Source: an uncultured virus (IMG/VR IMGVR_UViG_3300000255_000001) (taxonomy: Duplodnaviria; Heunggongvirae; Uroviricota; Caudoviricetes). From it: a DNA stretch of 64,000 bases. Of the stretch, positions 22,367-48,529 are shown piece by piece. The position numbers and the translations under genes are program-made. How positions within the stretch are numbered: position 1 is the stretch's first letter; each line of letters begins with the position of its first letter. The stretch lies in IMG/VR virus record IMGVR_UViG_3300000255_000001. One strand, 5' to 3'. The notes under the pieces were generated by a model, which was not told the DNA's origin, did not search any database, and saw nothing but the letters and a program-made list of their open reading frames with translations.

Positions 22367-24466
22367 TTGTCTTTAAACAATTATAGAAACATTGGTATCT
22401 TCGCACATGTGGACGCGGGTAAAACTACGACTACTGAGAGGATCCTTAAGCTCACAGGAAAGATACACAAAATTGGTGAGGTACATGATGGCGCCGCAAC
22501 CACAGACTTTATGGAGCAAGAGCAAGAGCGAGGCATTACAATACAAAGTGCCGCGACTACTTGCTACTGGAAAGACCACCAATTAAACATCATCGACACC
22601 CCTGGGCATGTAGACTTCACTATTGAAGTCTATCGTTCCCTTAAGGTGTTGGATGGTGGCGTTGGTGTATTTTGTGCAAGCGGTGGCGTAGAGCCACAAT
22701 CCGAAACTAACTGGCGTTATGCTAACGACAGCGAAGTAGCACGTATTATATACATTAACAAGATGGATAGAGTAGGTGCTGATTTTAATCGTGTTGTAGC
22801 ACAAATAAGAACACGACTTGGTGCGAAGCCGTTAATTATGACATATCCAATTGGAGCGGAAGATAAATTCGTAGGTGTAGTTGATATACTTACTCAAAAG
22901 GCTTGGATATGGTCAGATTCTACTGACCCAACTTCTTACACTATAACTGACATCCCAGATGATAAAGTACCTAGTGAGAAAATAGGTGACAAGTATACAT
23001 ATAAAGAAATGGCAAAACAACATTATGATATATTAGTTGAGACAGTTGTTGAGCAAGACGATGAAGTTATGATGCAATGGATAGATGATCCAGATAGCAT
23101 TAGTGAAGAAGATCTTAAAATGTGTATACGTAAAGGTACTAATACTTGTGAGTTCTTTCCAACGTATTGCGGCAGTTCATTTAAAAACAAAGGCGTACAA
23201 AACATATTAAATGCTATTGTAGATTATTTGCCCAATCCTACCGAAGTTGACCCACAACCAATAGTAGATGACACTGGTGTAGAAACAGGTGAAGTTGCTA
23301 CGGTAGATGCAGAAGGGCCGTTGCGGGCACTTGCATTTAAGATTATGGAAGACAAATATGGCGCACTAACATTTACACGCATTTATTCAGGCAACATGAA
23401 GAAAGGTGACTCCATATACAATAGTACAAATGGTAAAACAGAACGTGTTGGGCGTATATTGGAAATGCATGCCGACTCGCGTGAGGAATTGGACAGTGCA
23501 TCAGCAGGTGACATTGTTGCATTGCTTGGTATGAAGTCTGTACAAACAGGCCATACATTGTGTGATAAAAAGAACCAAGCAATACTTGAACCAATGGTAT
23601 TCCCAGATCCAGTTATTAGCATAGCAATTGAACCAAAGACACAAAGTGATATGGACAAGTTAGGAACTGCTATTGGTAAAATGGTAGCAGAGGATCCTTC
23701 CTTCCATGTAGAGACAGACCAAGAAACTGGCCAAACAATACTTAAAGGCATGGGCGAGTTGCATTTAGATGTTAAGTGCGATATACTAAAACGCACATAC
23801 GGTGTGGAAGTAAGCATAGGTAAACCACAAGTAGCATATAGGGAAACAATTACTAAAACAGTCAGTGATAGGTATACCCATAAAAAGCAAACAGGTGGTG
23901 CAGGCCAGTTTGCTGATATTGAATATACTGTAGAACCTCTTGAAGCAGGAGAGGGATTCCAATTTGAAAGCAAGGTAGTTGGCGGCAATGTTCCAAGAGA
24001 GTTTTGGACTTCTATAGAGAAGGGATTTGCAGGCTCCAGTGCAGATGGTATACTTGCAAGTTACCCAGTGCTTGATTACAAAGTAACATTAACAGATGGT
24101 TCCAGTCACGCAGTAGATAGTAGTGCTGTGGCATTTGAGCTGGCGGCTCGCGGAGCATTTAGACAAACAATGCCCAAAGCAGGTCCGAAGTTATTAGAGC
24201 CAATTATGAAACTAGACGTTACTTGCCCCGGAGACAAAGTAGGTGATGTTATAGGTGATATAAATAGGCGTAGAGGCATGATACACAATCAAGAAATGGC
24301 TGGCACAACGGTTCGTATATACGCAGAAGCACCAATTGGTGAAATGTTTGGGTATATAGGAGACTTACGCAGTCAAACAAGTGGTCGTGGTCAATTTAGT
24401 ATGGAATTTAGTCATTATGCGCCGTGTCCTAATAGCATTACTGAGGTTATCTTAAAGAAAACTTAA
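22367..24466 (+). CDS. fusA: elongation factor G
   Basis: [53 protein letters not shown] start with GGAG RBS. Confidence 0.98.
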
Positions 24467-24504
24467 AACACCATATATCTCCCTCTTAAATCACTCTAAA
24501 TATA

Positions 24505-24729
24505 GTGATGAAATGGAGGATTTATATGATTCATTGTAAATCGTTGATTAAGACTATAAGTTGGAGATGTATCGCTACTACAGATACATTTCTTATTGCC
24601 TGGTTAATTACTGGAGAGTATACTTTCGCAGGCGCAATAGCAGGACTAGAAGTATGTACTAAAATGGTACTCTATTACCTCCACGAGAGAGGATGGGCTA
24701 GAATCAAGTTAGCGAAAAATGGAACATAG
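24505..24729 (+). CDS. DUF2061 small membrane protein
   Basis: SLIKTISWR...LYYLHERGW. Confidence 0.85.
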   Translation: MMKWRIYMIHCKSLIKTISWRCIATTDTFLIAWLITGEYTFAGAIAGLEVCTKMVLYYLHERGWARIKLAKNGT

Positions 24730-25321
24730 AACCTGTCACAGACGAGGATACGAACTTTTGACTCCCAACATTTGGGAATTATATGATGGAATGGAGTCAA
24801 AAGGTTTCGTAAAAAATTTTAAAAATGACGAATCGGTTCCACCGAAGTATAAAGTTGTTGGGCATCCTGATTTAGATAGAACGGTACTGCCTAAAGGTAG
24901 CGTTATACAAATGCACACTATAGAGGACGAGTTCCCACTAGGCCTAGAAGGTCCTGAAGTACATGAGATATTGGATACCAAAGAAGAAACAATTCAAACC
25001 TTATATGAAAAAATACAAACATTGCGCGACGAATGTGGCGAAATGGATATACAAATAAAACAATTACAACATGAACTAAAACATAAAAAGCCAGGTGGTT
25101 CCATACGATGGAAGCTTACTTATACTTGGTGTGATAATGTAACAGAAGTATATTGGGATTTTAGAACTAAGAAACAAGCTGTAGCATATATGGAAGACAA
25201 CATAAAAGGTTTCTTCGGCATTAAGGTAGTTGAATCAATTAAGGATGTAAAATATGACAAATACATATATGGAACACGTGGAGTAAAACAAGATGAAACT
25301 AGCATTACACAAAAGAAGTAA
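24719..25321 (+). CDS. hypothetical protein with coiled coil
   Basis: ORF track; operon context. Confidence 0.6.
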   Translation: MEHRTCHRRGYELLTPNIWELYDGMESKGFVKNFKNDESVPPKYKVVGHPDLDRTVLPKGSVIQMHTIEDEFPLGLEGPEVHEILDTKEETIQTLYEKIQTLRDECGEMDIQIKQLQHELKHKKPGGSIRWKLTYTWCDNVTEVYWDFRTKKQAVAYMEDNIKGFFGIKVVESIKDVKYDKYIYGTRGVKQDETSITQKK

Positions 25322-25406
25322 ATATTTTGCTGTTACTAGGCGAAATAAACGTCGTGGTAAGAATCGCCTTAAGACTAAAAGTCGTAACAGTAGATCTACT
25401 ACATAA
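25293..25406 (+). CDS. 37-aa highly basic peptide
   Basis: MKLALHKRSKYFAVTRRNKRRGKNRLKTKSRNSRSTT*; GGAG at 25280. Confidence 0.55.
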   Translation: MKLALHKRSKYFAVTRRNKRRGKNRLKTKSRNSRSTT

Positions 25407-25414
25407 ATATTTTA

Positions 25415-25939
25415 ATGAACGTCAAAATTAGCTTATCTGGCTTCTTTTGTAATACATGGCCAGATTGTGTTGTAGTTTGTAATGGTCATACAATATTCCA
25501 GGATAAAATTATCAATGATAATATAATAGATTTTACTATTGATTTTTCTGCTGACAATTTATTAACAATAGGTATGACTAATAAGTTAATGGGTGAAAAT
25601 AGTGTATATGATATTTTGTTAGATGCACATAATAATATTATCGAGGACAAGTATATTAAAGTAAATGATATACTTTTTGATGATGTTAGCGTGGATAACT
25701 TAATACATGAATTTGTTTTTATTAAAGATTCTAATGAAAAAATATCAACATCTGGTAATATTAATTATAATGGTAGTATACATATCCCATTTCAACAACC
25801 AATTTATGATTGGTTAATACAAGAAAAATATATTAAAAAAGAAATACAAGAAACTAATTATCAAGGTTTTGGTAGTTGGAATAATAAATTTAATTATGAT
25901 GTACAGGATTTAATTAAAAAGTTAGAAACAATTGTATGA
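25415..25939 (+). CDS. hypothetical protein
   Basis: TAAATA-N5-ATG; coupled to the radical SAM gene. Confidence 0.7.
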   Translation: MNVKISLSGFFCNTWPDCVVVCNGHTIFQDKIINDNIIDFTIDFSADNLLTIGMTNKLMGENSVYDILLDAHNNIIEDKYIKVNDILFDDVSVDNLIHEFVFIKDSNEKISTSGNINYNGSIHIPFQQPIYDWLIQEKYIKKEIQETNYQGFGSWNNKFNYDVQDLIKKLETIV

Positions 25940-27309
25940 AGATTGCACTTGTACAACTCCCCAAATATTCTATAGATAGACCCCCTATGACACTTGCTGT
26001 TTTAACCAGTGTTATTAAAAATAATTTTGATTATGATATTGAGTGCTATGATTTATCATTAAAACTTTATCAAGATATTGAAAGAGAAGATTTCTATGAG
26101 ATTGAAGACTATTTAGAACATAATATATATAAATCTTCTGTAGATATATTGACAGATAACTTTTCTATATATGCTATAGAGATAAAAAATTGTGATTTAA
26201 TAGCAATAAGTGTTTTTAGTGATGCATCATGTCGAGCATGTGAAGTGCTGTGTAAGGAATTAAAAAAGTATAATTGCAAAATTGTTATTGGTGGACAAGG
26301 TTTGGCTAACGAAAACTGGTGTAAAAATATGTCTGATGCCAAGTTAATAGATGATTATATAGTAGGGGAAGGAGAATATACATTTGTAAATTATTTAAAT
26401 GGTTTACAAGGACCTGGTATAAACAATCATAATAATGAACAAATAGATGATTTAGATTTATTGCCTATTCCTGATTATAGTTTATTAAATTTGAATGATT
26501 ATAATCTTAAGGAATTATATGTTACTGGTTCTCGTGGATGTGTACGCAAATGTACTTACTGTGATGTTCCTTTTTTATGGAAAAAATATAGATATCGCTC
26601 TGGCCAACATATTGCTAATGAGTTAATACGACATTATGAGAAAAGTGGTATTACTGGCTTCTGGTTTACTGATAGTTTGGTCAATGGCAGTCTTAAACAT
26701 TTTAGAGAATTTTGCTATGCTTTAGAGAAATACTATGAAAATAATAACGTAAGATTTACTTGGAAGGGACAGTATATTTTTAGACGTATGAATCAGTTAA
26801 ATGAAGAATATTTTAGAATGATATCAGCAGCTGGTGGTAGTGAATTTTATGTAGGATTAGAAACTGGTAGTGACAAAATACGTTGGGAAATGGATAAAAA
26901 ATTTACTAATGAAGATGCAACCTATCATTTAGAGATGTTTAAAAAATATAAAATAACTTGTTTATTGCTTATGATTAGTGGTTATATAACAGAAACAAAT
27001 CAAGATCATTTAGATACAATGGCTATGTTTAAAAAATGGCAGAAATTTGTTGCATCAGGAACAATTACTGGCATAGAGTTAGGCAATACGTTAAGTATAC
27101 TAGAAAATACTCCTTTAGAAGAAGAAAATTTAGAGTTTGTTATACCAGGTGACAAGCATAGTTGGCACATTAAAGATAATACATATCAAGTACGTGTTAG
27201 AAATAGGTTAGAAATAACTAAAGAAGCGATGAAGTATCATTGGCCAATTACCAATAATCGTTTTAGATTAAAAACCTTTATTGCTAAATTAGAGCAATAT
27301 TATATATAA
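25936..27309 (+). CDS. B12-binding radical SAM protein
   Basis: IVIGG/VGEGE cobalamin-binding domain; SRGCVRKCTYC; GLETGS. Confidence 0.9.
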   Translation: MKIALVQLPKYSIDRPPMTLAVLTSVIKNNFDYDIECYDLSLKLYQDIEREDFYEIEDYLEHNIYKSSVDILTDNFSIYAIEIKNCDLIAISVFSDASCRACEVLCKELKKYNCKIVIGGQGLANENWCKNMSDAKLIDDYIVGEGEYTFVNYLNGLQGPGINNHNNEQIDDLDLLPIPDYSLLNLNDYNLKELYVTGSRGCVRKCTYCDVPFLWKKYRYRSGQHIANELIRHYEKSGITGFWFTDSLVNGSLKHFREFCYALEKYYENNNVRFTWKGQYIFRRMNQLNEEYFRMISAAGGSEFYVGLETGSDKIRWEMDKKFTNEDATYHLEMFKKYKITCLLLMISGYITETNQDHLDTMAMFKKWQKFVASGTITGIELGNTLSILENTPLEEENLEFVIPGDKHSWHIKDNTYQVRVRNRLEITKEAMKYHWPITNNRFRLKTFIAKLEQYYI

Positions 27310-27315
27310 ATATCC

Positions 27316-27344
27316 TTGACTTTACCTTAAGGTTAGTCTATAAT
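27316..27344 (+). promoter_or_regulatory. sigma70 promoter
   Basis: TTGACT-17bp-TATAAT. Confidence 0.8.
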
Positions 27345-27373
27345 AGTAGTATATCAATCAAAGGAGATATAAA

Positions 27374-27976: not shown

Positions 27977-27988
27977 ATAAATACCTAT

Positions 27989-28291
27989 GTGGCAGTCACT
28001 CGTAAAGTTAGAACTAAAGAAGAATATATTTACGAATCTCGGGATAACGGGGTTACCGTGTCTCGACGACTGCCTTTAGGTGAACAAAAAGAATATCTTA
28101 TCACAGAAGAAACTGTAGATAAAGTAAATGCGTTTAAGAAGAAGAAATTTGGTTGGCTATCCCATGATGAATTAATGGATTTGGGCCGAGAGAAATATCA
28201 ACAACAAGAATTGCGTGAAAAATATCCTGCGTTGAAAGAGGCATGGGAAAAATATCTTGTATTGTTAAACCTAGTTAAATCGGGTAAATAG
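27989..28291 (+). CDS. hypothetical protein
   Basis: YIYESRDNG.TV..R; YPALKEAWEKY; TAAATA-N5-GTG. Confidence 0.7.
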   Translation: MAVTRKVRTKEEYIYESRDNGVTVSRRLPLGEQKEYLITEETVDKVNAFKKKKFGWLSHDELMDLGREKYQQQELREKYPALKEAWEKYLVLLNLVKSGK

Positions 28292-28295
28292 TATT

Positions 28296-28640
28296 ATGCG
28301 TTACACTGAACTAAATGAAAGCGGCTCCATACACTGGGAAGATGAGAAATTTGATGCAGATAATCCAACTGTATTAATACGCGGGTATGGTACACTAACC
28401 TATAAAACTCTCCAACAAGCGATCGCTAGAGATTTAGCAGAGATGTCCCAGCGGGTGGCAGATGGTAGTTTAGAAGTTGTAGCAAATCACCAATTATTTG
28501 ATAGTAAAAGCGCATTCAATGGCAAAGTTCAAGCATATTTAGATGTTACTAAAGAACTAGCAAAGCCAACAATCAAGCGAAAACTCACACTTCACAAGAA
28601 AAATAGTCTATTTAATACCATAAAAAATAGTGATCAATAA
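28296..28640 (+). CDS. putative internal head protein
   Basis: MRYTELNE|S; TAAATA-N5-ATG. Confidence 0.6.
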   Translation: MRYTELNESGSIHWEDEKFDADNPTVLIRGYGTLTYKTLQQAIARDLAEMSQRVADGSLEVVANHQLFDSKSAFNGKVQAYLDVTKELAKPTIKRKLTLHKKNSLFNTIKNSDQ

Positions 28641-28643
28641 TTC

Positions 28644-28672: not shown

Positions 28673-28679
28673 TAAGAAT

Positions 28680-29639: not shown

Positions 29640-30250
29640 TGCAAATGTTTATCAGTTTCACAATTCATGGTTACGGTGGAGAAGTTGTTCTCGGTAAAAT
29701 ATCTAAAAAGGCGGCTGAATTTTGGCAATCTGAAGAAATGCAAGAATACTTGCATGGTTATGTTTTTAGTCCAGAATGGTTTGAAGAAGAAAACCCAAAC
29801 ATCAAAATACCCAAGTATGCCCAAATAGGTGTGTGGCATGATATGGAAGATCGCGGGCACGAGTGGGGAGCGGCACAAGGCGGTGCGTATCTTACTATAA
29901 ATGAAGTGAGCGATGATGCATGGGATGCTAATCATGTACGCGACATTTTTTATGGTGAATTAATGGATTATGTGAATGAACACGAAGTAGAAATTCATTC
30001 TGATGAACAACATCCTAAACCAAAAGAATATACATTCTGTGGTGTTAACTCTGAGAAAGGTACATTTTACGACGGCACTATAGAAATTGAAGGAGACTTT
30101 GATCCTAAAAAAGTCTCTTTTGGTAGCACAGAAATCCATCAAGATACTCTTATTACACAAATTTTTTATGGTGATGAAACCATAGATAATTCTGGTGGAG
30201 GTACTGATGGCAAAGCCATGGATTTTGAAATTATAGAGCCGTGGGAGTAA
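29639..30250 (+). CDS. hypothetical acidic protein
   Basis: GYGGEVVLG, SEKGTFY, GGTDGK. Confidence 0.7.
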   Translation: MQMFISFTIHGYGGEVVLGKISKKAAEFWQSEEMQEYLHGYVFSPEWFEEENPNIKIPKYAQIGVWHDMEDRGHEWGAAQGGAYLTINEVSDDAWDANHVRDIFYGELMDYVNEHEVEIHSDEQHPKPKEYTFCGVNSEKGTFYDGTIEIEGDFDPKKVSFGSTEIHQDTLITQIFYGDETIDNSGGGTDGKAMDFEIIEPWE

Positions 30251-30258
30251 ATACATAT

Positions 30259-30609
30259 ATGAGCCTTAAACTTGATCCAGTTGATTTGATGGTATACGCT
30301 GACGTTGCCGAAGCTTTTGAAGGATGGATTATTAATAATCCTGAAATAAAAGATGAGTCTACTGGTATTCGGCAGTCAAGAGTATTTGCTAAAACATATT
30401 TAAATCTTTATATTACATTTTTACAAATGCTTAGGTATGTTCCTAAAGAAGAGATGGAATATGAATCAACTACCGAGGAGGGAGTTAAACGTAAATTTGC
30501 CGCTATAGATGATATATATGTTAATTTAAAAGCATCTACAGAATTATCAGATGAAGATAAAGCACATATGGATTTAATTAAATCTAAAATAAAACCAACA
30601 TTACACTAA
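30259..30609 (+). CDS. hypothetical protein
   Basis: TAAATA-N5-ATG. Confidence 0.65.
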   Translation: MSLKLDPVDLMVYADVAEAFEGWIINNPEIKDESTGIRQSRVFAKTYLNLYITFLQMLRYVPKEEMEYESTTEEGVKRKFAAIDDIYVNLKASTELSDEDKAHMDLIKSKIKPTLH

Positions 30610-30613
30610 TATT

Positions 30614-31052: not shown

Positions 31053-31072
31053 GAGTCTTAATAAATAATGAC

Positions 31073-31264
31073 ATGAAGAGATTGTTCGATAAGTTTAAGA
31101 AAAATGAACCGCCTCCTCAGAAAAGAAAGTTTGTAGCAGAAATTAGAGACACGTTTAATGAAAAGAAAATCTACAGAGCAAGGTGGGTATGGTATCATAC
31201 AATCCTTGCCGCGGAATTGTTTTTAATTATTATTTTGTTGATTGGGATATTGATAAAAATTTAG
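31073..31264 (+). CDS. small membrane protein
   Basis: RARWVWYHTILAAELFLIIILL; TAAATA-N5-ATG. Confidence 0.7.
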   Translation: MKRLFDKFKKNEPPPQKRKFVAEIRDTFNEKKIYRARWVWYHTILAAELFLIIILLIGILIKI

Positions 31265-35464: not shown

Positions 35465-35654
35465 ACAAGACAAAAATCTTATAGTTTGTGGTGAGTGTGC
35501 TGAAACGCATACTGCTATAGACTTGAATAATTACAACGAGAGTCCATTTAGTGAATGCTCTATATGTGGCTATGTGGATGAACAAGCACGTGAAGAATAT
35601 ATGTGGTGGTCTTATAAACTTGACACCGAAATGAGAGATTGGGAAGACGTATAG
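35445..35654 (+). CDS. small zinc-finger protein
   Basis: CGEC...CSICG. Confidence 0.6.
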   Translation: MMVYQHKQDKNLIVCGECAETHTAIDLNNYNESPFSECSICGYVDEQAREEYMWWSYKLDTEMRDWEDV

Positions 35655-35656
35655 TA

Positions 35657-36796
35657 ATGGTTAAGATGAAAAATATTGTAAGTTTAAAGCCGCTATATAA
35701 GCGAGATAGCAAAGGCAAAATCCGCATTTGGACTGTAGAAGTTGGCTATAACAATGAAGGCGTAGCTGGCATTCGTAGTATAAGTGGATTGGTTGATGGT
35801 GAAAAAGTCACCAGCGTTTGGAATATGAGCCGGGCCAAAAACGTAGGCAGGGCGAACGCAACAACTGCTAAAGGCCAGGCTGAGTTTGAAGCACAGGCAC
35901 AATGGACAAAGAAAGCAGACAAAGAGTACTTTGCGAAGAAAAAGGACGTTGATAGTTACGAGTTGTTCAAGCCTATGTTGGCGCACGACTTTACAAAGAC
36001 GCCAGTTGTAAGTGGCTATACTCAGCCCAAACTAGATGGTATTCGTTGTGTTGTTGATAAGAACGGTATGCATACTCGCGGCGGAAAGCCTATTAATAGT
36101 TGTCCGCATATCTGGGAGAGTGTAAAGCATATAATCAAAGACAATCCAAATATTGTATTGGACGGCGAACTTTACAACCATAAATTGAAAGCAGACTTCC
36201 AAAAGATTATTAGTCTGGTTAGAAAAGTAAAATGCCGCCCAGAGGAGATTGCTGAAAGTGCTGAATTAGTTGAGTATCATATCTACGATATGTTTGATCG
36301 TGACAGTGAAGATATGCTTTTCACCGACCGAGCACAATGGCTTAAAGACCATATCGGAAATGTATCACGATACACTTCTGTTGTTTTGGTAAAGACTACC
36401 AAATGTAAAGACATTGCCAAGATTGATGAAATGTATGGCAAGTATACAGAGGCAGGGTTTGAAGGTCAAATGGTTAGGCAGAATAACAAATATGAATGTA
36501 AACGTAGTAAAGGTTTGCTTAAAAGAAAAGAATTCATTACCGAAGAGTTTGATGTGGTTGGCGTAGAGGAAGGACAAGGTGCATGGACAGGCTATGCTAA
36601 AAAGTTCACTCTCAAATTGCCAGATGGTAGAACGTTTAGTAGTGGAGTTCGAGGTTCCCAGGCACAATTGAAAGCATTGCTCAAAGCAAAGCAAAAGCCA
36701 AATTGGGCAACTTGCAGATTTTTTGAATTAAGCAACGACGGCGTACCACGTTTTCCCGTAGTTATTGATTATGGGGTTGGGGTACGTGACGATTAA
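35657..36796 (+). CDS. ATP-dependent DNA ligase
   Basis: KPMLAH, QPKLDGIRC, LDGELY, FEGQMVR, LLKRK, PRFP. Confidence 0.95.
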   Translation: MVKMKNIVSLKPLYKRDSKGKIRIWTVEVGYNNEGVAGIRSISGLVDGEKVTSVWNMSRAKNVGRANATTAKGQAEFEAQAQWTKKADKEYFAKKKDVDSYELFKPMLAHDFTKTPVVSGYTQPKLDGIRCVVDKNGMHTRGGKPINSCPHIWESVKHIIKDNPNIVLDGELYNHKLKADFQKIISLVRKVKCRPEEIAESAELVEYHIYDMFDRDSEDMLFTDRAQWLKDHIGNVSRYTSVVLVKTTKCKDIAKIDEMYGKYTEAGFEGQMVRQNNKYECKRSKGLLKRKEFITEEFDVVGVEEGQGAWTGYAKKFTLKLPDGRTFSSGVRGSQAQLKALLKAKQKPNWATCRFFELSNDGVPRFPVVIDYGVGVRDD

Positions 36797-36803: not shown

Positions 36804-36887
36804 GCCCCCGTGGCGGAACGGCAGACGCTGTTGACTTAAAATCAATTTCCGATAGGAGTGCTGGTTCGAATCCAGCCGGGGGCACCA
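36804..36887 (+). tRNA. tRNA-Leu(TAA)
   Basis: Cloverleaf with long variable arm; CCA encoded. Confidence 0.95.
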
Positions 36888-37452: not shown

Positions 37453-37481
37453 TTGACAAAATTAGTAAAATGCAGTATCAT
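37453..37481 (+). promoter_or_regulatory. sigma70 promoter, leaderless into ATG 37488
   Basis: TTGACA-17bp-TATCAT. Confidence 0.75.
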
Positions 37482-37487
37482 AATAGT

Positions 37488-37643
37488 ATGAAGAACCCTC
37501 GCCGCAAGACGAGATTCGCTCGTGTTCTGTTTGAACGCGATAACCCTTACTCTCAGAAAGTTGAACGTAAGAAAACCGCTTATACTCGTCGTGCCAAGCA
37601 CAATCACGAATATAAGCAAGAACTAGGAGACTATAATGTCTGA
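37488..37643 (+). CDS. 51-aa ArfA-like basic peptide (putative ribosome rescue/binding factor)
   Basis: MKNPRRKTRFARVLFERDNPYSQKVERKKTAYTRRAKHNHEYKQELGDYNV*; resembles ArfA [23 protein letters not shown]. Confidence 0.65.
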   Translation: MKNPRRKTRFARVLFERDNPYSQKVERKKTAYTRRAKHNHEYKQELGDYNV

Positions 37644-40355: not shown

Positions 40356-40363
40356 TTAACAAC

Positions 40364-40438
40364 GCACCGGTCGTCTAATGGTTAGGACATCGGCCTTTCA
40401 CGCCGACAACCGGGGTTCGATCCCCCGTCGGTGTACCA
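40364..40438 (+). tRNA. tRNA-Glu(TTC)
   Basis: Cloverleaf; CCA. Confidence 0.95.
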
Positions 40439-40454
40439 AAGAGGAAATAAAATA

Positions 40455-40724
40455 ATGGCAGATATATATCAAAAAGTAGAAAGAAGCACACAAAGTCTTG
40501 CAATGAAAATTGCTAATGCTGGTAAAGCAAGATTAAAGGGCATGGCTCGTCAATTGTATCTTGAAGGGTTCGCCAGTTTAAAAAACTGCGAAAAAGTTGC
40601 TCAGAATGGTAATCAAGGCAGAGGATTTTATATTGCTAAAGTAGTAAACAAGGAATTTGCTGAGAAAGAAAAAGAGAACGAAAAGAAGAAGCGAAATAAG
40701 GGCAAGAAAACACAGAGCAAATAA
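40455..40724 (+). CDS. basic hypothetical protein within the tRNA cluster
   Basis: GAGG RBS; Lys-rich tail. Confidence 0.6.
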   Translation: MADIYQKVERSTQSLAMKIANAGKARLKGMARQLYLEGFASLKNCEKVAQNGNQGRGFYIAKVVNKEFAEKEKENEKKKRNKGKKTQSK

Positions 40725-40727
40725 TCT

Positions 40728-40805
40728 CTCGGTGTAGGAAAGTCTGGTTAATCCGCTTCGTTTGGGACGAAGAAATCGCTGGTTCAACTCCAGCCACCGA
40801 GACCA
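40728..40805 (+). tRNA. tRNA-Pro(TGG)
   Basis: Cloverleaf; CCA. Confidence 0.92.
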
Positions 40806-40810
40806 TATTG

Positions 40811-40894
40811 GGACAGGCTGAACAATGGTGAGTTCACCGGATTGTAAATCCGACGCCTCAGGCTGTGCTGGTTCGAGCCCAGCCCTGTCCACCA
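40811..40894 (+). tRNA. tRNA-Tyr(GTA)
   Basis: Cloverleaf with long variable arm; CCA. Confidence 0.92.
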
Positions 40895-40897
40895 AAT

Positions 40898-40971
40898 TGG
40901 GACATAGTGTAACGGTAGCACTACAGATTTTGATTCTGTCAGTTGGGGTTCGAATCCCTGTGTCCCAGCCA
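40898..40971 (+). tRNA. tRNA-Gln(TTG)
   Basis: Cloverleaf; CCA. Confidence 0.92.
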
Positions 40972-40972
40972 T

Positions 40973-41048
40973 GGGCCTGTAACTCAGCGGTGAGAGTGCC
41001 GGTCTTATATGCCGGTGGTCGATGGTTCGAATCCATCCAGGCCCACCA
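40973..41048 (+). tRNA. tRNA-Ile(TAT)
   Basis: CCGGT-ct-TAT-at-GCCGG anticodon arm; CCA. Confidence 0.9.
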
Positions 41049-41053
41049 AAATA

Positions 41054-41090
41054 GGTTAGTTCTGATAAATAGTCCGAGGGAGGACTAACT
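41054..41090 (+). promoter_or_regulatory. RBS-sequestering hairpin with a late promoter in its loop
   Basis: GGTTAGTTCT/AGGACTAACT 10-bp stem; TAAATA at 41066; GGAGG overlaps the 3' arm. Confidence 0.7.
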
Positions 41091-41091
41091 A

Positions 41092-41571
41092 ATGATAGGA
41101 ACATGTAAAGTTTGTAGTAAAGAGTTTAAATATTTCCCTAGTCAATCTAAAGGACAATATTGCTCAAATAAGTGCCAAGGTGCGTTAAGGGCAGAAGTTA
41201 CTAAAGCGAAGTGGCGTGTCCATTACGAAGAAGGTGCTGATATAGGGAGACCGAGACAGCGTCAGATGTTAACAGAAGATCATGGGTATAATTGTAGTGT
41301 ATGTAAGTTAAGTGAATGGCAAGATAAGCCTATTACATTACAAGTAGATCATATAGATGGTAATGCTGATAACAACGATAAGAAAAATTTACGACTTATA
41401 TGTCCAAATTGCCATAGCCAAACAGATACATTTGCTGGAGGTAATAGAGGACAAGGTCGTTGGAGTAAGGGTTTGAAAGACAGATACAAAGGACAATCTT
41501 TTACGCATGGTAAGATCCGGGTCCGGCCGGGATCCTTCGGGAACAAGAATGGCTCCCTCTCCACCAAATAA
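41092..41571 (+). mobile_element. HNH endonuclease inserted in the tRNA cluster
   Basis: CKVC..CSNKC; CSVC; LQVDHIDG...NL..ICPNCHSQT. Confidence 0.9.
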
Positions 41572-41581
41572 ATAATATTAC

Positions 41582-41655
41582 GCCTCTATAGTTAAACGGT
41601 ATAACAATACCCTTGTAAGGTTTAGTTGTTGGTTCGATTCCATCTAGAGGCTCCA
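41582..41655 (+). tRNA. tRNA-Thr(TGT)
   Basis: Cloverleaf with one anticodon-stem mismatch; CCA. Confidence 0.85.
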
Positions 41656-41664
41656 ATTTTTTAT

Positions 41665-41738
41665 GGGGGATTGGTGAAATGGGATCACGTGGCCTTTGCA
41701 AGGCTAAATTAAGAGTTCGACTCTCTTATTCTCCACCA
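41665..41738 (+). tRNA. tRNA-Ala(TGC)
   Basis: G3:U70 identity pair; CCA. Confidence 0.92.
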
Positions 41739-41741
41739 GAT

Positions 41742-41816
41742 GGGCCCTTAATTCAGCGGTAGAATGCTGTCTTTACATGGCAGAAGTCGGAAGTTCGAAT
41801 CTTCCAGGGCCCACCA
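41742..41816 (+). tRNA. tRNA-Val(TAC)
   Basis: Cloverleaf; CCA. Confidence 0.92.
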
Positions 41817-41821
41817 AATTC

Positions 41822-41897
41822 GGTCCCATGGTGTAATTGGTTAACACGCTAGCCTGTCACGCTGGTATTAGGGGTTCGAGTCCCCTTGGGACCGCCA
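41822..41897 (+). tRNA. tRNA-Asp(GTC)
   Basis: Cloverleaf; CCA. Confidence 0.93.
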
Positions 41898-41901
41898 ATT
41901 T

Positions 41902-41976
41902 TCCCTAGAGCGCGCAAGGTGTGCGAGGTGACTGTTAATCACTTGTGGGTTGGTTCGATTCCAACCTAGGGAGCCA
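41902..41976 (+). tRNA. tRNA-Asn(GTT)
   Basis: Cloverleaf; CCA. Confidence 0.88.
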
Positions 41977-41979
41977 AAT

Positions 41980-42054
41980 GCGGGTGTAGCTCAGCGGTAG
42001 AGCCTCTCGTTGCCAACGAGAATGTCGTCAGTTCGAATCCCACCCTCTCCGCCA
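41980..42054 (+). pseudogene. chimeric tRNA: Gly(GCC) 5' part joined to a Ser-type 3' end
   Basis: GCGGGTG...GCC anticodon...GTCAG TTCGAAT then CCCAC CCTCTCC GCCA; acceptor and T stems do not pair. Confidence 0.8.
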
Positions 42055-42065
42055 TAAATATTGAT

Positions 42066-43058
42066 ATGAGTTATTCTACAATTATAAAATATATTCCTGA
42101 AGAATATACACAATATCTTATTCAATATCACAAAGAAAATAAACATAATTATGATATCTTTGATTGGGAAGAAGATGACCTTTTTTTACAGATGTGGGGA
42201 TTAACTGAAAAAAGTAAAATATCTGGCCGTAGTAAAATATCTGGCCGTTACGGTGCTACAAATTGGCAATCCAATCATGCTATGGATGATCCACTAGCAC
42301 GCTCATCAGCCGGTGTCTTATCAATTGGAAGCATCATTTGGACGTTCGTGCGGCGGATTACGTCACCAATTCCTACAAGAAAAGGTGAGGTATATGACAA
42401 ATGCGAGATTGAAATGAATCTAATAGTAAAGAAAATTTTAGATTTATTTAACGTAGAATATACTGAATTTGAAGCATTTATTAAAACTTCTTATTTACCA
42501 ATTTCTTTACACGTTGATGCGAATCGTTATGAAGGGCCCACTACTTCACATAATAATTGGGATGGTAAAGTACCTTCTCAGCGTCAGGATGGAAGTGATT
42601 CAAAACAAGGAATATCTATTATAATACCACTAACATTTAATAAAGATATCCATACTATAATATTTAAAAATATCGCAGAAGATAATGATTATGTTCAAGA
42701 TTTTCAAGATGTAGTTTCTGGTCTTTATGAAGAACCCAATCCCAAAGAGCACCAAGCGTTGACGCGAGCCATTGGCGGGCCTGATAGAGCCAATCTTCCA
42801 ATATATGAACATAATTTAGATTATAGAGATTATATTCCCAATATTTGGAATAAACAAATGATTGAATTTTATCTAGATCCAGAAAATAAACCATATGCTA
42901 GGGGTGATCAGATATTAGATTATCTTGAAGTAGATGAGATAATCCCGTGGGAGAAAAATGTTGCTTGTATGTTTGATAAACAAAAAATGCATATGAGTAA
43001 TAATTTTAAAAAACTTGGTATAGAAAGTAAAGATTTTCTTTTAATACATACACACTAA
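42066..43058 (+). CDS. putative 2OG-Fe(II) oxygenase-like protein
   Basis: LHVD, IIIPL, FDxxKMHMS; TAAATA-N5-ATG. Confidence 0.5.
   Translation: MSYSTIIKYIPEEYTQYLIQYHKENKHNYDIFDWEEDDLFLQMWGLTEKSKISGRSKISGRYGATNWQSNHAMDDPLARSSAGVLSIGSIIWTFVRRITSPIPTRKGEVYDKCEIEMNLIVKKILDLFNVEYTEFEAFIKTSYLPISLHVDANRYEGPTTSHNNWDGKVPSQRQDGSDSKQGISIIIPLTFNKDIHTIIFKNIAEDNDYVQDFQDVVSGLYEEPNPKEHQALTRAIGGPDRANLPIYEHNLDYRDYIPNIWNKQMIEFYLDPENKPYARGDQILDYLEVDEIIPWEKNVACMFDKQKMHMSNNFKKLGIESKDFLLIHTH
42213..42248 (+). repeat. 18-bp in-frame tandem duplication
   Basis: AGTAAAATATCTGGCCGT x2 (SKISGR SKISGR). Confidence 0.95.
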
Positions 43059-43750
43059 TGGATTCAAAAATACAAGAGTTTTACTTACAGCACAAAGATA
43101 AAGTATGGAATTATGAACGAATTCCAGACAATAAAACTCCTAGGCATTGGGCAACTTGGGAAAGCAAATATCCGTGGTTAAAACTTATGATAGATGCTCC
43201 GTTTAAGGAAATGCTTGAAGAAGCCAAAAATATAAAGCATTTATTTGTTGAGCATAGAACAGATTATTCACAAGGATGGAAAAGTGTATGCATTCATGGC
43301 ATTGGTGATCATGTTACATCTATACCTGAAGATCATGGATTTAGCAAAGATGCAAAAAGAGATTGGACCAATGCCTCTGTAGAATGCCCAATTACAACGA
43401 ATTATTTTAAAAATGAATATCCAATTAATGTTTATGATAGAATTAGATTTATGTTAATTGAACCAGGTGGGTATATTGATGTTCATGTTGATGGAAGTAG
43501 AGATGATAATCCTAGTCGTGCTGTTAATATGAGTCTTAATAATCCTGATAAGTGTTTTTTAATAACTGAAAATGGAATAGTTCCTTACGATAATAATGGT
43601 AGCGTTTTTTATTTTAATATTGCTTATGAGCATGGGGTAATAAATAATAGCAATAAAGATAGATATCATATTATTGTACATGGTGCTGAAACAGTAGAGT
43701 TTGAAGATATTGTATTAAAAAGTTATGAAGATCAAGTTATTAATCGATAA
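43058..43750 (+). CDS. aspartyl/asparaginyl beta-hydroxylase-like 2OG-Fe(II) oxygenase
   Basis: RIRFMLIEPGGYIDVHVD...HGVINNSNKDRYHIIVHG. Confidence 0.85.
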   Translation: MDSKIQEFYLQHKDKVWNYERIPDNKTPRHWATWESKYPWLKLMIDAPFKEMLEEAKNIKHLFVEHRTDYSQGWKSVCIHGIGDHVTSIPEDHGFSKDAKRDWTNASVECPITTNYFKNEYPINVYDRIRFMLIEPGGYIDVHVDGSRDDNPSRAVNMSLNNPDKCFLITENGIVPYDNNGSVFYFNIAYEHGVINNSNKDRYHIIVHGAETVEFEDIVLKSYEDQVINR

Positions 43751-44921: not shown

Positions 44922-44938
44922 TCATAATAAATATTGCT

Positions 44939-45091
44939 ATGAAAATAGTTGAGTTAATGGAAGCAGTTGGTATAGGACGCGGCTTAATGGAACTAATTAC
45001 TACTGGTGAGTACCAAACTATCAATTTATCGTGCTTCAACCCCACTCGAGTGTTAAATAAAGAAAAGCGGTTAGAACCTTACGTTATTTAA
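44939..45091 (+). CDS. 50-aa peptide with internal-protein-like N-terminus
   Basis: MKIVELME|AVG; TAAATA-N5-ATG. Confidence 0.5.
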   Translation: MKIVELMEAVGIGRGLMELITTGEYQTINLSCFNPTRVLNKEKRLEPYVI

Positions 45092-45105
45092 ATTGGAGCG
45101 AAATA

Positions 45106-45555: not shown

Positions 45556-45556
45556 T

Positions 45557-45641
45557 GCCCGCGTGGTGAAATTGGAATACACGATTGTTTTAGGGGCAAT
45601 TGCCGCAAGGCGTGCTGGTTCGAGTCCAGCCGCGGGCACCA
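45557..45641 (+). tRNA. tRNA-Leu(TAG)
   Basis: Cloverleaf with long variable arm; CCA. Confidence 0.92.
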
Positions 45642-45646
45642 AAAAT

Positions 45647-45738
45647 GGTGGGTTGGCAGAGCCCGGTTGAATGCACCAGACTTGAAATCTGGCATACGTG
45701 TAAGCGTATCGAAGGTTCGAATCCTTCACCCACCGCCA
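45647..45738 (+). tRNA. tRNA-Ser(TGA)
   Basis: Cloverleaf with long variable arm, G73; CCA. Confidence 0.95.
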
Positions 45739-45772
45739 ACTTAATCAATAAATATTTTTAGAGGATCAAATT

Positions 45773-46285
45773 ATGAATGAAGATACATTATATAGCTCAA
45801 ATTGGGACAATATGTGGGACTGCCGAACTGCTTCTGGTGAAAAATTTAATTTACAAGAAGAATGTGAAGGTAAAGTTCTATTAGTAGTAAACACAGCAAG
45901 TGAATGTGGTTGGACACGACATTATGAACCCTTACAAACACTTTATGAAGAATTGAAAGAGAAAGGATTAATAGTTGTTGCTTTTCCATGTAATCAATTT
46001 GGAGAACAAGAACCTGGTACAGATGAGGAAATTTTAGAATTTTGTCAAACAAAATACAACGTAACTTTTCCTGTAATGCAAAAAGGTGATGTTGAAGGAG
46101 ATAACTGTCAACCACTTTATCAATGGCTTATAAGTGATCATGGTGAAGGGAAAAGTTGGATTGGCTGGAATTTTCATAAATTTTTAATTGACCGAACAGG
46201 CAATGTTGTCGGTAATTGGGAAATGGAAGAAGAAATGGAACCAGTTATAGAAGCGGTTCAGTCATGCCTGCAGAAATCAAATTAG
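45773..46285 (+). CDS. glutathione peroxidase (Cys type)
   Basis: VNTASECG, FPCNQFGEQEPG, WNFHKFLIDR. Confidence 0.95.
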   Translation: MNEDTLYSSNWDNMWDCRTASGEKFNLQEECEGKVLLVVNTASECGWTRHYEPLQTLYEELKEKGLIVVAFPCNQFGEQEPGTDEEILEFCQTKYNVTFPVMQKGDVEGDNCQPLYQWLISDHGEGKSWIGWNFHKFLIDRTGNVVGNWEMEEEMEPVIEAVQSCLQKSN

Positions 46286-47094
46286 ATTGGAATAAAGTAT
46301 TAAACTGTTCTGCTATAATCAATAACAATATTGATAATGTTTATTTTGAATATATTTGGCATAGATATATTGACAATCAAGATATAGAGTATAAGGACTG
46401 GAAACCTTCCGGTTTAACATTTGATAGTCATTGGCTTGTTAAATACTATCTTAATTTTATACATTGTAAAGATCTATTAAAAGACTATAATGTTTTAGAT
46501 TTGGGATGTGGGATTCCTTTTTATGCTAAATGGTTTTTAAATTCTGGTGCAAAATCTTATGATGGTATAGATTTAGATTTTAATAGAATTATTATTGGTG
46601 ATCAATTATTAGAATTACAAAATCTTAAAGATAAAGCAAATATTATTTCTGATGATATAGAAAGTTATGTGTATAAACCACAGTTTGTGGACTCGCGTCC
46701 GTGGATACCGCAATATTTAAAATCATATGATATTGTCTATCTAATAGAGTCACTATATTATATACATAATCAGCACGATTTACTAACTACGATTAAGCAA
46801 AATATTAAACCAAAGAACTTAATTATAGAAAGTGTTGTAGTAGATGATATATTAGAACATCCAGAAGGAATTATTCGAGTAAAATATAGTTCAGAAGATT
46901 CAAAAGACTATGATGGGGTTAAATCAGACTTGCCTAGGTTAAAGATGCATAGTAGTCGTAAAGCATATGAAAAACTTTTTGAATCTACTGGTTGGAAAAT
47001 TAAAGAATATTATGACTTTAAAAACTATAAGGGTCCTGATTTTCCAAGTGAAAATATTGCAAATGGCCGTAAGATGTTCTATGTTTTAGAATAA
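46264..47094 (+). CDS. class I SAM-dependent methyltransferase
   Basis: VLDLGCG, GIDLD, YDIVY, IIES. Confidence 0.85.
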   Translation: MPAEIKLDWNKVLNCSAIINNNIDNVYFEYIWHRYIDNQDIEYKDWKPSGLTFDSHWLVKYYLNFIHCKDLLKDYNVLDLGCGIPFYAKWFLNSGAKSYDGIDLDFNRIIIGDQLLELQNLKDKANIISDDIESYVYKPQFVDSRPWIPQYLKSYDIVYLIESLYYIHNQHDLLTTIKQNIKPKNLIIESVVVDDILEHPEGIIRVKYSSEDSKDYDGVKSDLPRLKMHSSRKAYEKLFESTGWKIKEYYDFKNYKGPDFPSENIANGRKMFYVLE

Positions 47095-48407
47095 AAATCA
47101 GCAAATAATTCGTAGTATTCTGGCATAGTATTTTTAAAACTTTGTTTTCGATATCCGTCTATTTTGCCATTTATATCCCAAAATGTATCTCTATGTCGAT
47201 CATAATCATCAGGAGTATAATCTAAAGTATTAATTACTGTTTCCATATCTCGTGTATACATATGTTTTACAGCATGTGCGCCATTTTTTCCAGTTGGCGG
47301 ATCATAGTTTAATAACTTTTTTCTAATTACTTCTTTAATAGGTTCTGGAATGTACATAATGTTACATTCCTTTTTATCATATACTCTGTTAGCAAATGAC
47401 ATAGAAACATTGCCAACACCATTGATATTAGCCAGTTTCTCCTCTTCTGATCGTTGAAAAATAGTAAACTCATTTTCTAGCCAGCCTTTTTCATGTACAT
47501 ATTGACAAATTTCAGGAAGATAGAATACATTTAATATTTGAGTTGTAATTGAAAAATCAGGGAATATTGAAGGATGATTCATTGATGCTTTTAAAAACTT
47601 TTCTATATTTTCTTCAATTTGGTCCCATTTGCTTAAATGTCTAATATAATCATTATGTTTACCAATAGCATCAAAACTTAATCCTAATACAGCATGTTTG
47701 AATTTTCCTAGTTTTTCAACTATTTCATTTGAGAAAATTGTACAATTTGTATGTATACCTAATACTTGTTCTTTTGCTACATCATTTTCTATACTCTTAT
47801 CAATTATTTCATATGTAAAAGGATTTAGGAGTGGTTCTCCACCATATAAGTCAATAACAGCAAATCCTTTATTCCAGTTAGATAAAACACGACGGAGTTC
47901 TTCATTACTTTCATGATAACTCAGTTCATAACTTTCCCATTTTTTAAGCCATTCTTTATATGGTTTTTTTATATTTTTTATTTTGTAAGAGTCTTTATAC
48001 CATTGAACACTAGTTGATGGATGACATGATCTGCAAGCATTATTACATTTATTACCGTGTTTTAATACTAAAACTCTGGGTTGATCTTCCATTGGTTCAA
48101 TACCAGCAAATACTTCATTTAACATTGTTCTATGACTTTTTGTGCCACTTTCTTCATTTACTCTACATTGTTTACAACCTTCCGGCCAGATACCTTGTTT
48201 ATGTTGTTCTAATAAACGATCCCGCATATCATTATTCCATGCTTTTTCCAAACTATCATGCTGTAGAATAATCATATGACTAGGTTCATTCTCTCCATGA
48301 TTTGTCATTAAATGATAATCTAGTAATTGGTTACAGGGAGAAATATGGCCGCCCATATGTCCTGTTAAGCCTAATTGTGCGAGTTTACATACTATTTCTT
48401 TTGGCAT
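47079..48407 (-). CDS. radical SAM protein with N-terminal twitch/SPASM-like domain
   Basis: CNNACRSC, YGGEPL, CKQC; TAAATA-N5-ATG. Confidence 0.9.
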   Translation of the reverse strand: MPKEIVCKLAQLGLTGHMGGHISPCNQLLDYHLMTNHGENEPSHMIILQHDSLEKAWNNDMRDRLLEQHKQGIWPEGCKQCRVNEESGTKSHRTMLNEVFAGIEPMEDQPRVLVLKHGNKCNNACRSCHPSTSVQWYKDSYKIKNIKKPYKEWLKKWESYELSYHESNEELRRVLSNWNKGFAVIDLYGGEPLLNPFTYEIIDKSIENDVAKEQVLGIHTNCTIFSNEIVEKLGKFKHAVLGLSFDAIGKHNDYIRHLSKWDQIEENIEKFLKASMNHPSIFPDFSITTQILNVFYLPEICQYVHEKGWLENEFTIFQRSEEEKLANINGVGNVSMSFANRVYDKKECNIMYIPEPIKEVIRKKLLNYDPPTGKNGAHAVKHMYTRDMETVINTLDYTPDDYDRHRDTFWDINGKIDGYRKQSFKNTMPEYYELFADFYSKT

Positions 48408-48452
48408 ACCCGTATTTATGAATTATACCTATTCTATGAATAAATATTTGTT

Positions 48453-48529
48453 TGGTCCATAGCTCAGTTAGTTAGAGCGCCGCTCTGATAAAGCGGAGGT
48501 CCCTGGTTCGAATCCAGGTGGACCAACCA
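48453..48529 (+). tRNA. tRNA-Ile(GAT)
   Basis: Cloverleaf; CCA. Confidence 0.93.

Follow-up and report, generated by a model that had tools for sequence, protein, structure and literature searches.

Probable separately evolved translation aids and predicted leaderless messages in an uncultured marine T4-like jumbo phage resembling pelagimyophages

Introduction

Elongation factor G (EF-G), transfer RNAs (tRNAs), ribosomal protein bS21, peptide deformylase (PDF), and transfer-messenger RNA (tmRNA) have all been described in huge phages; the hypothesis put forward there is that elongation factors of phage origin maintain efficient translation and that genes of this kind divert the translation of the host (Al-Shayeb et al., 2020, PMC7162821). 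This article concerns a 64,000-nucleotide (nt) stretch of DNA from an uncultured virus (IMG/VR record IMGVR_UViG_3300000255_000001), hereafter the window, which brings together an EF-G gene, a small basic protein resembling ArfA, a set of tRNA genes, and numerous start codons placed five nucleotides behind a TAAATA box. A first-pass annotation of positions 22367-48529 had assembled these features into an integrated system of translation autonomy. We consider it probable, though well short of assured, that they are four separately evolved translation aids of the kind known from huge phages. Translation gene sets of huge phages have already been published; less known are the apparent leaderless design of many genes and the link between the small protein and the ArfA and DUF7230 families.

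Among the closest described systems are the pelagimyophages, in which PDF, bS21, and an Asp/Asn beta-hydroxylase are core to all members and late-promoter prediction failed (Zaragoza-Solas et al., 2020, PMC7029224). A phage gene carrying an ArfA domain has also been published, gp30 of pelagiphage HTVC027P being annotated as such (PMC12753301). In bacteriophage T4, the late-promoter box TATAAATA lies at -13 to -6 and gp55, gp33, and gp45 are the proteins involved (PMC1524935). In Pseudomonas aeruginosa, EF-G1B and the str-operon copy EF-G1A indicate that second copies of EF-G can be specialised, splitting translocation and recycling between them (PMC3832671).

The phage and its relatives

The gene content of the window is that of a T4-like myovirus, with gp9/10-type baseplate proteins at 57364-59415, and the same phage encodes a clamp loader and PhoH outside the window. 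A 100-kb record (G001) has 97% of the sampled words of the window in common with it and adds 38.8 kb, and a record of 322,647 bp (G002, CheckV completeness estimate 90%) covers window positions 2423-64000 at 99.98% identity. The remaining positions 1-2422, which carry minus-strand genes for SET-domain, QueC-like, and GNAT proteins, are unaligned to G002 and represent either a variable island or an assembly difference. PHROG scans of the G002 open reading frames (ORFs) took in 139 and a further 74 proteins, omitting one giant ORF and 13 border-spanning ORFs, and another 49 ORFs were assessed with Pfam instead. The PHROG matches comprise a T4 core made up of the major head protein, portal, prohead protease, sheath, tube, large terminase, gp32, UvsX/Y, helicase, primase, DNA polymerase, gp46/47, and a gp55-type late sigma factor.

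On this T4-like backbone the phage encodes all three of the pelagimyophage core proteins, namely PDF (PF01327), bS21 (phrog_21469), and an Asp/Asn beta-hydroxylase (PF05118, window 43058-43750). The source of the window is an uncultured marine T4-like jumbo phage resembling pelagimyophages, with a genome no shorter than 322 kb; because this phage carries the three core proteins, its host is likely to be a SAR11-like alphaproteobacterium. An alpha-type permuted tmRNA in the related record G004 also counts toward this identity of the phage. An origin in seawater fits the RNA-library and marine labels of the matching runs. The phage is like the cultured pelagimyophage HTVC008M in its T4-like core, its three core proteins, and its low GC content, but its genome is twice as large and holds 16 tRNAs, against none listed for HTVC008M (Zaragoza-Solas et al., 2020, PMC7029224), a paper from whose text the terms "elongation factor", "tmRNA", and "PrkA" are absent. 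Only two of 38 tested proteins match HTVC008M, and the kinship is therefore distant.

Elongation factor G

EF-G is preceded in the window by a group of genes that are referred to below, as follows.

16816..18756, plus strand: PrkA/YeaG-type AAA serine kinase (Pfam PF08298 at 5e-173, PF06798 at 2e-67), heading the trio that precedes EF-G
18784..19305, plus strand: HNH/NUMOD3 homing-endonuclease-like gene (Pfam NUMOD3 and HNH), with a TAAATA-N5-ATG start, box at 18773-18778
19287..20672, plus strand: YeaH/YhbH, DUF444 (Pfam PF04285 at 4e-150)
20572..22308, plus strand: SpoVR/YcgB (Pfam PF04293 at 2e-155, SpoVR_C), whose true start is probably a later in-frame ATG
22367..24466, plus strand: elongation factor G, 699 amino acids (aa), full length, with a TTG start and GGAG ahead of it

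The EF-G gene is intact. All five domains of the factor are matched end to end (PF00009, PF03144/PF22042, PF14492, PF03764, and PF00679), and the protein scores 920.5 bits against a cut-off of 659.4 for the EFG I type model NCBIfam TIGR00484, while the models for EF-G2, Tet, LepA, TypA, and RF3 all stay under their own cut-offs. The motifs AHVDAGKTT at residue 13, DTPGH at 77, NKMD at 131, GGAGQF at 510, and HAVDS at 581, which we take to be the P-loop, switch II with its histidine, the NKMD motif, and the domain IV tip loops, are common to 117-120 of 120 homologues. It is the sole translational GTPase in G002 and in the related records G003 and G004. Across 13 viral loci, including those identical to the window, EF-G is 80-100% identical, and within the clade it is more strongly conserved (80-93%) than the neighbouring YeaH (49-71%) and SpoVR (56-77%). 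On the strength of the conservation and the intact motifs, a passenger or decaying gene was rejected. The idea of an EF-G resistant to reactive oxygen species was also dropped, as the phage protein has nine cysteines, among which Cys103 and Cys268 are presumably the two redox-sensitive ones of the E. coli factor.

The phage EF-G group comprises 41 clusters at 77-93% identity, the next matches being cellular EF-Gs at 70-72%. In a quick maximum-likelihood tree of 75 rows, which retained 65 of 80 cellular loci, did not include the P. aeruginosa pair, and contained one long-branched row (L104) that is an ORF-picking artefact, ten phage rows form one clade on a long stem with a Shimodaira-Hasegawa-like approximate likelihood ratio support of 100. 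The clade is placed among the EF-Gs of Gammaproteobacteria, Verrucomicrobiota, and Cyanobacteria, with no single donor picked out. In all eight of the loci inspected, from 80 returned, the nearest cellular EF-Gs, at 67-72% identity, are without rpsG or tuf flanks and are therefore stand-alone copies outside the str operon. The closest cellular kin of the phage protein are thus full-length EFG-I-type, non-str copies, like the second EF-G of P. aeruginosa. The gene would have been gained once by the phage clade from such a stand-alone cellular lineage and has evidently been held under strong purifying selection since. The phage EF-G most likely supplements or replaces that of the host, and may sustain elongation, and recycling with host ribosome recycling factor (RRF), in a slow, factor-poor, or shut-off host.

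PrkA, YeaH, and SpoVR lie upstream of EF-G in all 13 related viral loci, with 0-4 kb of variable genes between; the HNH/NUMOD3 gene between prkA and yeaH occurs only in the three loci identical to the window. Because the 13 loci are kin, their fixed gene order amounts to one inherited arrangement. PrkA (about 60% identity) and EF-G (about 48%) also occur together in three huge phages of another clade, though at widely separated positions.

Transfer RNAs

The tRNA genes of the window are distributed over four places.

36804..36887, plus strand: tRNA-Leu(UAA), by ARAGORN and Rfam
40364..42050, plus strand: main tRNA array, Glu-UUC, Pro-UGG, Tyr-GUA, Gln-UUG, Ile-UAU, Thr-UGU, Ala-UGC, Val-UAC, Asp-GUC, Asn-GUU, and Gly-GCC, with an HNH gene (41092-41571) inside
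45557..45738, plus strand: tRNA-Leu(UAG) and tRNA-Ser(UGA), by ARAGORN and Rfam
48453..48529, plus strand: tRNA-Ile(GAU), by ARAGORN and Rfam

ARAGORN reports 15 tRNAs, ten of which carry a T at position 34 (U34). All but one of the 15 reach the Rfam gathering score, giving 14 by Rfam, the exception being Asn (41902-41976). The earlier count of 14 intact tRNAs, ten of them with U34, is borne out, as is the presence of tRNA-Ile(TAT) at 40973-41048, which is the top-scoring Rfam tRNA match at 72.6 bits. G002 holds one extra tRNA, a second Asn-GUU of 85 nt at 8563-8647, far from the array. Third codon positions of the phage are 37% A and 39% T. The Watson-Crick codon is the commonest synonym for seven of the ten U34 tRNAs (Ala, Glu, Leu, Pro, Gln, Thr, and Val), and 43% of Ile codons are ATA. 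The 15 tRNAs, mainly for favoured A-ending codons, would increase decoding supply.

The set spans 13 of the 20 amino acids, with none for Met (and so no initiator), Lys, Arg, Phe, His, Cys, or Trp, and therefore supplements the host tRNA supply and does not confer the translation autonomy that the first-pass annotation had proposed. No aminoacyl-tRNA synthetase is among the family matches from general Pfam and PHROG scans of the window and of the G001 and G002 ORFs. The tRNAs may boost supply or replace cleaved tRNAs. An ATP-dependent ligase gene (35639-36796) stops 8 nt ahead of tRNA-Leu(UAA), and a polynucleotide kinase is encoded elsewhere in G002 (L029:5902-6381); the T4 counterpart of the latter participates in tRNA repair. 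A further HNH gene lies beside tRNA-Ile(GAU), at 48550-49104.

A small basic protein related to DUF7230 and ArfA

The only candidate in the window for an ArfA-like protein lies between the first tRNA gene and the main array.

37470..37643, plus strand: ArfA-like (DUF7230-related) small basic protein, 57 aa, or 51 aa from Met7 at 37488
37453..37481, plus strand: sigma-70-like promoter TTGACA-17-TATCAT, 11 of 12 consensus positions matched (a consensus match only), ending 6 nt before the ATG at 37488

The 57-aa protein has 18 close homologue clusters at 82-91% identity, and the first 40 residues of its G003 orthologue are identical despite seven synonymous codon changes; since it recurs in these clusters and its residues are kept through synonymous changes, it is a real gene. 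Direct searches for an ArfA identity yielded nothing. They comprised Pfam and NCBIfam scans of eight and six small ORFs, respectively, a PDB search, and six-frame searches with the ArfA family PF03889, which gave no match in G001-G004; the 57-aa protein itself has no Pfam, NCBIfam, or PDB match at E ≤ 10, ArfA (PF03889) and DUF7230 included. A tblastn search with this protein and two distant relatives against 50,697 phage records was likewise without a match, for which the low-complexity filter is possibly responsible.

Only profile methods linked the family to ArfA. The family profile finds 26 more distant representatives of 39-103 aa with the pattern KTR-x-[HA]-x-x-LF-x-x-D-x-P-[FY]-x-x-K-V-E-x-x-K-x-x-Y-x-R-K-x-K-H. 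Eighteen of these touch DUF7230 (PF23876) at E ≤ 1, the best at 26.6 bits against a gathering score of 27, and three touch ArfA, the best (P0279) with an E-value of 3.7e-4 and 20.3 bits against a threshold of 25.5; E. coli ArfA itself touches DUF7230 with an E-value of 0.11. Aligned by hhalign to an ArfA profile built from 15 close enterobacterial sequences, the family gives a probability of 88.8% and an E-value of 2.5e-6 over 32 columns, corresponding to ArfA residues 21-55. Pairwise BLASTP against ArfA gives an E-value of 0.003. In a protein atlas, a viral DUF7230 cluster is the rank-5 neighbour at 0.89, which is a lead only.

The likeness to ArfA (E. coli YhdL, PF03889) lies in small size, basic character, similar length, and a core, D-P-[FY]-x-Q-[KR]-V-E-x-x-K...Y-x-R-[KR]-x-K-H, that aligns equally far from the N-terminus; judged from the alignment of its family, the protein has the basic C-terminal core that in ArfA occupies the mRNA channel (...VEK..K...SY.RK.KH). 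The family differs from ArfA in lying below the Pfam threshold, lacking the KGK insert, and ending in an ordinary stop, and it is nearer to DUF7230. No part of it aligns to ArfA residues 1-20, and it is the N-terminal part of ArfA that contacts RF2. Nor does the gene have the stop-less mRNA design of ArfA, as its ORF ends in a TGA that overlaps the ATG of the next gene and its sole terminator-like hairpin is near codons 14-19 and not at the 3' end. On sequence grounds, the small protein falls outside PF03889 and is best assigned to a family, rich in phage members, that is akin to DUF7230 and to the core of ArfA at its C-terminus. The ArfA-like peptide of the earlier reading is accordingly retained as a conserved gene whose family profile aligns with ArfA, while its placement within the ArfA family falls short of the threshold.

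The protein probably docks in the empty mRNA channel of the ribosome, as does the channel-binding half of ArfA, and the rescue of non-stop ribosomes via a host release factor (RF) would be its most likely activity. Because the near-consensus promoter ends 6 nt before the codon of the invariant Met7, the product may be the 51-aa form and its message may itself be leaderless.

Start codons at a fixed distance from a late-promoter-like box

The window contains 18 instances of the arrangement TAAATA-N5-ATG. Shuffled sequences gave 3.17 ± 1.87, and none of 100 shuffles reached 18; one extra site has a GTG start (27989). Nine TAAATA-N5 sites fall within 22367-48529, and the list below extends beyond that region.

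24497..24510, plus strand: TAAATA-N5-ATG of a DUF2061 membrane protein gene, kept in G003
25404..25417, plus strand: TAAATA-N5-ATG, the TAA of the box being the stop codon of a 37-aa gene
27978..27991, plus strand: TAAATA-N5-GTG, kept in G003
28285..28298, plus strand: TAAATA-N5-ATG (motif count, orthologue comparison)
30248..30261, plus strand: TAAATA-N5-ATG (motif count, orthologue comparison)
31062..31075, plus strand: TAAATA-N5-ATG (motif count, orthologue comparison)
42055..42068, plus strand: TAAATA-N5-ATG, immediately after tRNA-Gly
44928..44941, plus strand: TAAATA-N5-ATG of a 50-aa ORF (motif count)
48405..48418, minus strand: TAAATA-N5-ATG of the radical SAM gene 47079-48407 (motif count)
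48539..48552, plus strand: TAAATA-N5-ATG of an HNH gene, immediately after tRNA-Ile(GAU)
57377..57390, plus strand: TAAATA-N5-ATG of a gp9/10-like baseplate gene (motif count)
2476, 3807, 5668 (minus), 7598 (minus), 18773, 52820, 53609: other TAAATA-N5-ATG sites (motif count)

In G002, 46 of 415 TAAATA boxes have an ATG at spacer 5, against 3-15 at other spacers, and 36 of the 46 open ORFs of at least 50 aa. A spacer-5 peak is also present in G003 (25), in G004 (21), and in HTVC008M, where 14 ATGs, 12 of them opening ORFs of at least 50 aa, stand against 0-3 at other spacers; there is none in T4 (3, with the peak at 23-29) or in cyanophage P-SSM2 (4, with the peak at 20-25). Orthologues retain the box and its spacing while the spacer letters vary at 19 of 21 sites in G003 and, by a strict count, at 8 of 17 in G004. 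At these sites, positions -13 and -12 are A-rich and position -1 is mostly T, and there is no -35 element, no other conserved upstream column, and no Shine-Dalgarno (SD) sequence. The upstream ORF ends 4-132 nt from the site, and the TAA of the box is the upstream stop in only 5 of 38 cases; termination-reinitiation was rejected on these grounds as the cause of the fixed spacing.

The likeness to T4 late promoters extends to the same TATAAATA-like core box, the lack of a -35 element, a gp55 homologue (phrog_12791 at 2e-74 and phrog_234, L025:10978-11817), and the occurrence of the box ahead of late genes that are conserved; neither gp33 nor gp45 was recognised by name. The portal and tail tube genes have the box 19-22 nt upstream, ahead of an SD sequence, and the large terminase and head-tail adaptor genes are of the 5-nt type. 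In T4 and P-SSM2, ORFs start 20-29 nt past the box, whereas in the present phage 5 nt is the most frequent distance, too short to accommodate either a leader or an SD sequence. With the T4 box at -13 to -6 (PMC1524935), a 5-nt spacer puts position +1 on the A of the ATG. From this geometry we infer that the TAAATA-N5-ATG genes are leaderless; many messages would begin on AUG and be initiated without an SD leader. The roughly 20 apparently leaderless genes claimed for the window correspond in number to the 18 ATG sites and one GTG site and are predicted by geometry. In Thermus phage phiYS40, which is also large, many middle and late genes are said to be expressed as leaderless mRNAs; a PrkA-like kinase is found in both phages (28% identity), but promoter type, host, and phage family differ.

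Leaderless initiation would not be universal in this phage. A third (33%) of 353 G002 ORFs, the capsid, sheath, and tube genes among them, have GGAG, GAGG, or AGGA at -18 to -4, against a background of 5-8%, with a G peak at -10; the phage therefore still depends on the anti-SD sequence of the ribosome, contrary to the resistance to anti-SD cleavage that had been ascribed to it.

tmRNA and other translation and proteostasis genes

Rfam models RF04321, RF01849, and RF01850 were used to look for tmRNA. A permuted (two-piece) tmRNA is present in G003 (L053:6569-7083) and G004 (L045:11809-12103), scoring 119.7 and 121.8 bits, respectively, against 47 for RF04321; the alpha_tmRNA model gives 83.7 against 50 in G004, and beta_tmRNA gives 99.6 against 84 in G003. 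The G003 copy is about 300 nt longer than that of G004, for which ARAGORN gives the tag ANDDYYDYALAA. No tmRNA was found in G002 or the window, but the ends of G002 flank exactly the segment of about 4 kb that carries it in G003 and G004, and because this segment falls in the assembly gap, the present phage may have one as well. RRF, the RF-1 family (RF1, RF2, and ArfB), and SmpB were found in none of the three records G002-G004 (one of which is 90% complete), control genomes being positive.

The bS21 homologue (G002 L020:5611-5937, minus strand) has 108 aa, and the family match spans residues 44-108, leaving an N-terminal extension of about 43 residues; an N-terminally extended S21 is also noted for huge phages (PMC7162821). 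Genes for DnaJ, PDF, and a ClpB-like two-AAA ATPase stand side by side at G001 L003:6796-10585, and Cpn10, Hsp20, and a DegP-like trypsin/PDZ protease are encoded at L002:4360-4761, L020:3121-3588, and window 56107-57294.

One system or separate aids

Compared with the huge-phage repertoires, which include EF-G, tRNAs, bS21, PDF, and tmRNA as does this lineage, the present lineage is T4-like, pelagimyophage-related, and about 325 kb in size, has EF-G fixed behind PrkA-YeaH-SpoVR, and has many leaderless-type starts (PMC7162821 for the repertoires). The ORFs and searches covered yielded no aminoacyl-tRNA synthetase, initiation factor, RF, RRF, or SmpB in it. Several points count against interpreting the four features as straightforward translation aids. 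The GC content of the phage (35.7%) is not below the 30-35% of a SAR11-like host (PMC7029224), and codon compensation in its usual sense is for that reason doubtful. The small protein of the window itself matches neither ArfA nor DUF7230 at E ≤ 10, and the alignment of its family is confined to ArfA residues 21-55, without the three-residue KGK stretch. Five marine RNA libraries contain 5-8% of the sampled words and yield short contigs; those of four marine runs overlap portions of the region, with strand and transcript starts unreadable and DNA carry-over possible. The fixed spacing might reflect a signal for translation and not a promoter, and EF-G, with its constant place behind PrkA-YeaH-SpoVR, may be part of that module.

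The last two points each lead to an alternative. If TAAATA-N5-ATG were a translation-initiation or coupling signal within polycistronic mRNAs, the genes would not be leaderless at all, and the tight packing of the genome (93% of G002 lies in long ORFs), the many such starts 4-15 nt behind the preceding ORF, and the RNA contigs, which showed no transcript ends, would all be in keeping with this; yet the box rarely supplies the upstream stop, the upstream ORF may end as far as 132 nt away, two of the window sites come directly after tRNA genes, the same box precedes SD-led late genes at 19-22 nt, a gp55 homologue is encoded, and the spacing is exactly the box-to-start distance of T4 (PMC1524935), so that we regard a coupling signal as improbable. 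EF-G as a working part of a PrkA-YeaH-SpoVR starvation module, and not a general translation booster, is also unlikely, though it deserves some weight. The four genes would then jointly retune protein synthesis in a starved host; EF-G might, for instance, be targeted by the kinase module or work as its partner. The unbroken association in 13 loci, across 0-4 kb of variable genes, and the co-occurrence of PrkA and EF-G in three huge phages of another clade speak for it, albeit that the two are far apart there; against it, the 13 loci are related and inherited their order once, and in none of the eight loci inspected is the closest cellular EF-G adjacent to prkA.

The interpretation originally given to the region was that stalled 70S ribosomes are freed by EF-G and the ArfA-like peptide and put to work again on leaderless phage mRNAs, which would let the phage withstand defences directed at mRNA, tRNA, or the anti-SD sequence by cleavage. 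Its components all exist and plausibly bear on translation: one genome combines EF-G with the ArfA-like protein, the tRNAs, and 18-19 starts of leaderless type, in a lineage that also has bS21 and, in two relatives, tmRNA. The gene for the ArfA-like protein, preceded by a near-consensus promoter of host type, seems leaderless too, and G002 encodes a polynucleotide kinase at another place. EF-G, however, depends on RRF for the splitting of ribosomes and has no rescue activity on stalled ones, and together the two factors split 70S ribosomes instead of preserving them. RRF, the RF-1 family, and SmpB are missing from all three related records, the ArfA-like protein has no likeness to ArfA residues 1-20, a third of the ORFs retain SD cores, and no defence-related context was found. 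The co-occurrence of fusA and the small-protein gene is seen only in the same phage and its 86% relative, and as these are close kin it is not independent evidence. No result supports the specific mechanism of rescue and reuse, and an integrated kit of this kind is very unlikely. A bolder possibility, to which we likewise assign a low probability, is that in this lineage a large part of the gene set has shifted to AUG-starting leaderless messages, with matching ribosome-directed parts (the N-extended bS21, EF-G, the ArfA/DUF7230-type protein, and tmRNA) that would retune host ribosomes to initiate and finish leaderless phage mRNAs preferentially, a strategy distinct from the SD-based takeover by T4. 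Four separately evolved aids remain the explanation that we favour.

Literature searches on leaderless genes and on HTVC008M yielded no paper describing promoters fused to start codons in these phages. If the activities and transcript starts proposed here hold, such promoters drive many genes of abundant marine T4-like phages, among them the cultured HTVC008M; a widespread, unnamed family of phage mini-proteins consists of ArfA-related binders of the ribosomal mRNA channel, extending alternative ribosome rescue to viruses; and EF-G joins bS21 and PDF as a strongly selected translation gene in phages of slow-growing ocean bacteria. HTVC008M is a culture system sharing the TAAATA-N5-ATG peak, and all three implications are testable with existing cultures.

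Other small ORFs and further observations

Two short K/R-rich peptides had also been assigned to the translation kit.

25293..25406, plus strand: 37-aa polybasic protein, with nine synonymous and three non-synonymous codon changes relative to G003, including an AGA to CGT change in Arg
50606..50713, plus strand: 35-aa K-rich candidate ORF, abutting both neighbours, with GAGG upstream and no diverged relative that spans it

With synonymous changes outnumbering non-synonymous ones, 25293-25406 is a real coding gene under purifying selection in its frame, and this one of the two peptides is upheld; 50606-50713 has in its favour its abutting position and the upstream GAGG. The 37-aa protein has no Pfam match better than an E-value of 0.014 and no PDB match, and the 35-aa ORF has no Pfam or NCBIfam match at E ≤ 10.

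Radical SAM enzymes are numerous, with genes at window 12187-13272, 25936-27309, and 47079-48407 and several more in G002; they are scattered across the genome beside small ORFs, and some have B12-binding or SPASM domains. A type IV pilin gene (51691-52635) encodes an N-methylation motif and a pilin domain, and its product is extended by a long stretch at the C-terminus. G002 carries the Rfam "freshwater-2" cis-regulatory RNA motif (L024:15614-15691, minus strand; 63.9 bits against 49.9) roughly 0.5 kb downstream from the gene for the major head protein.

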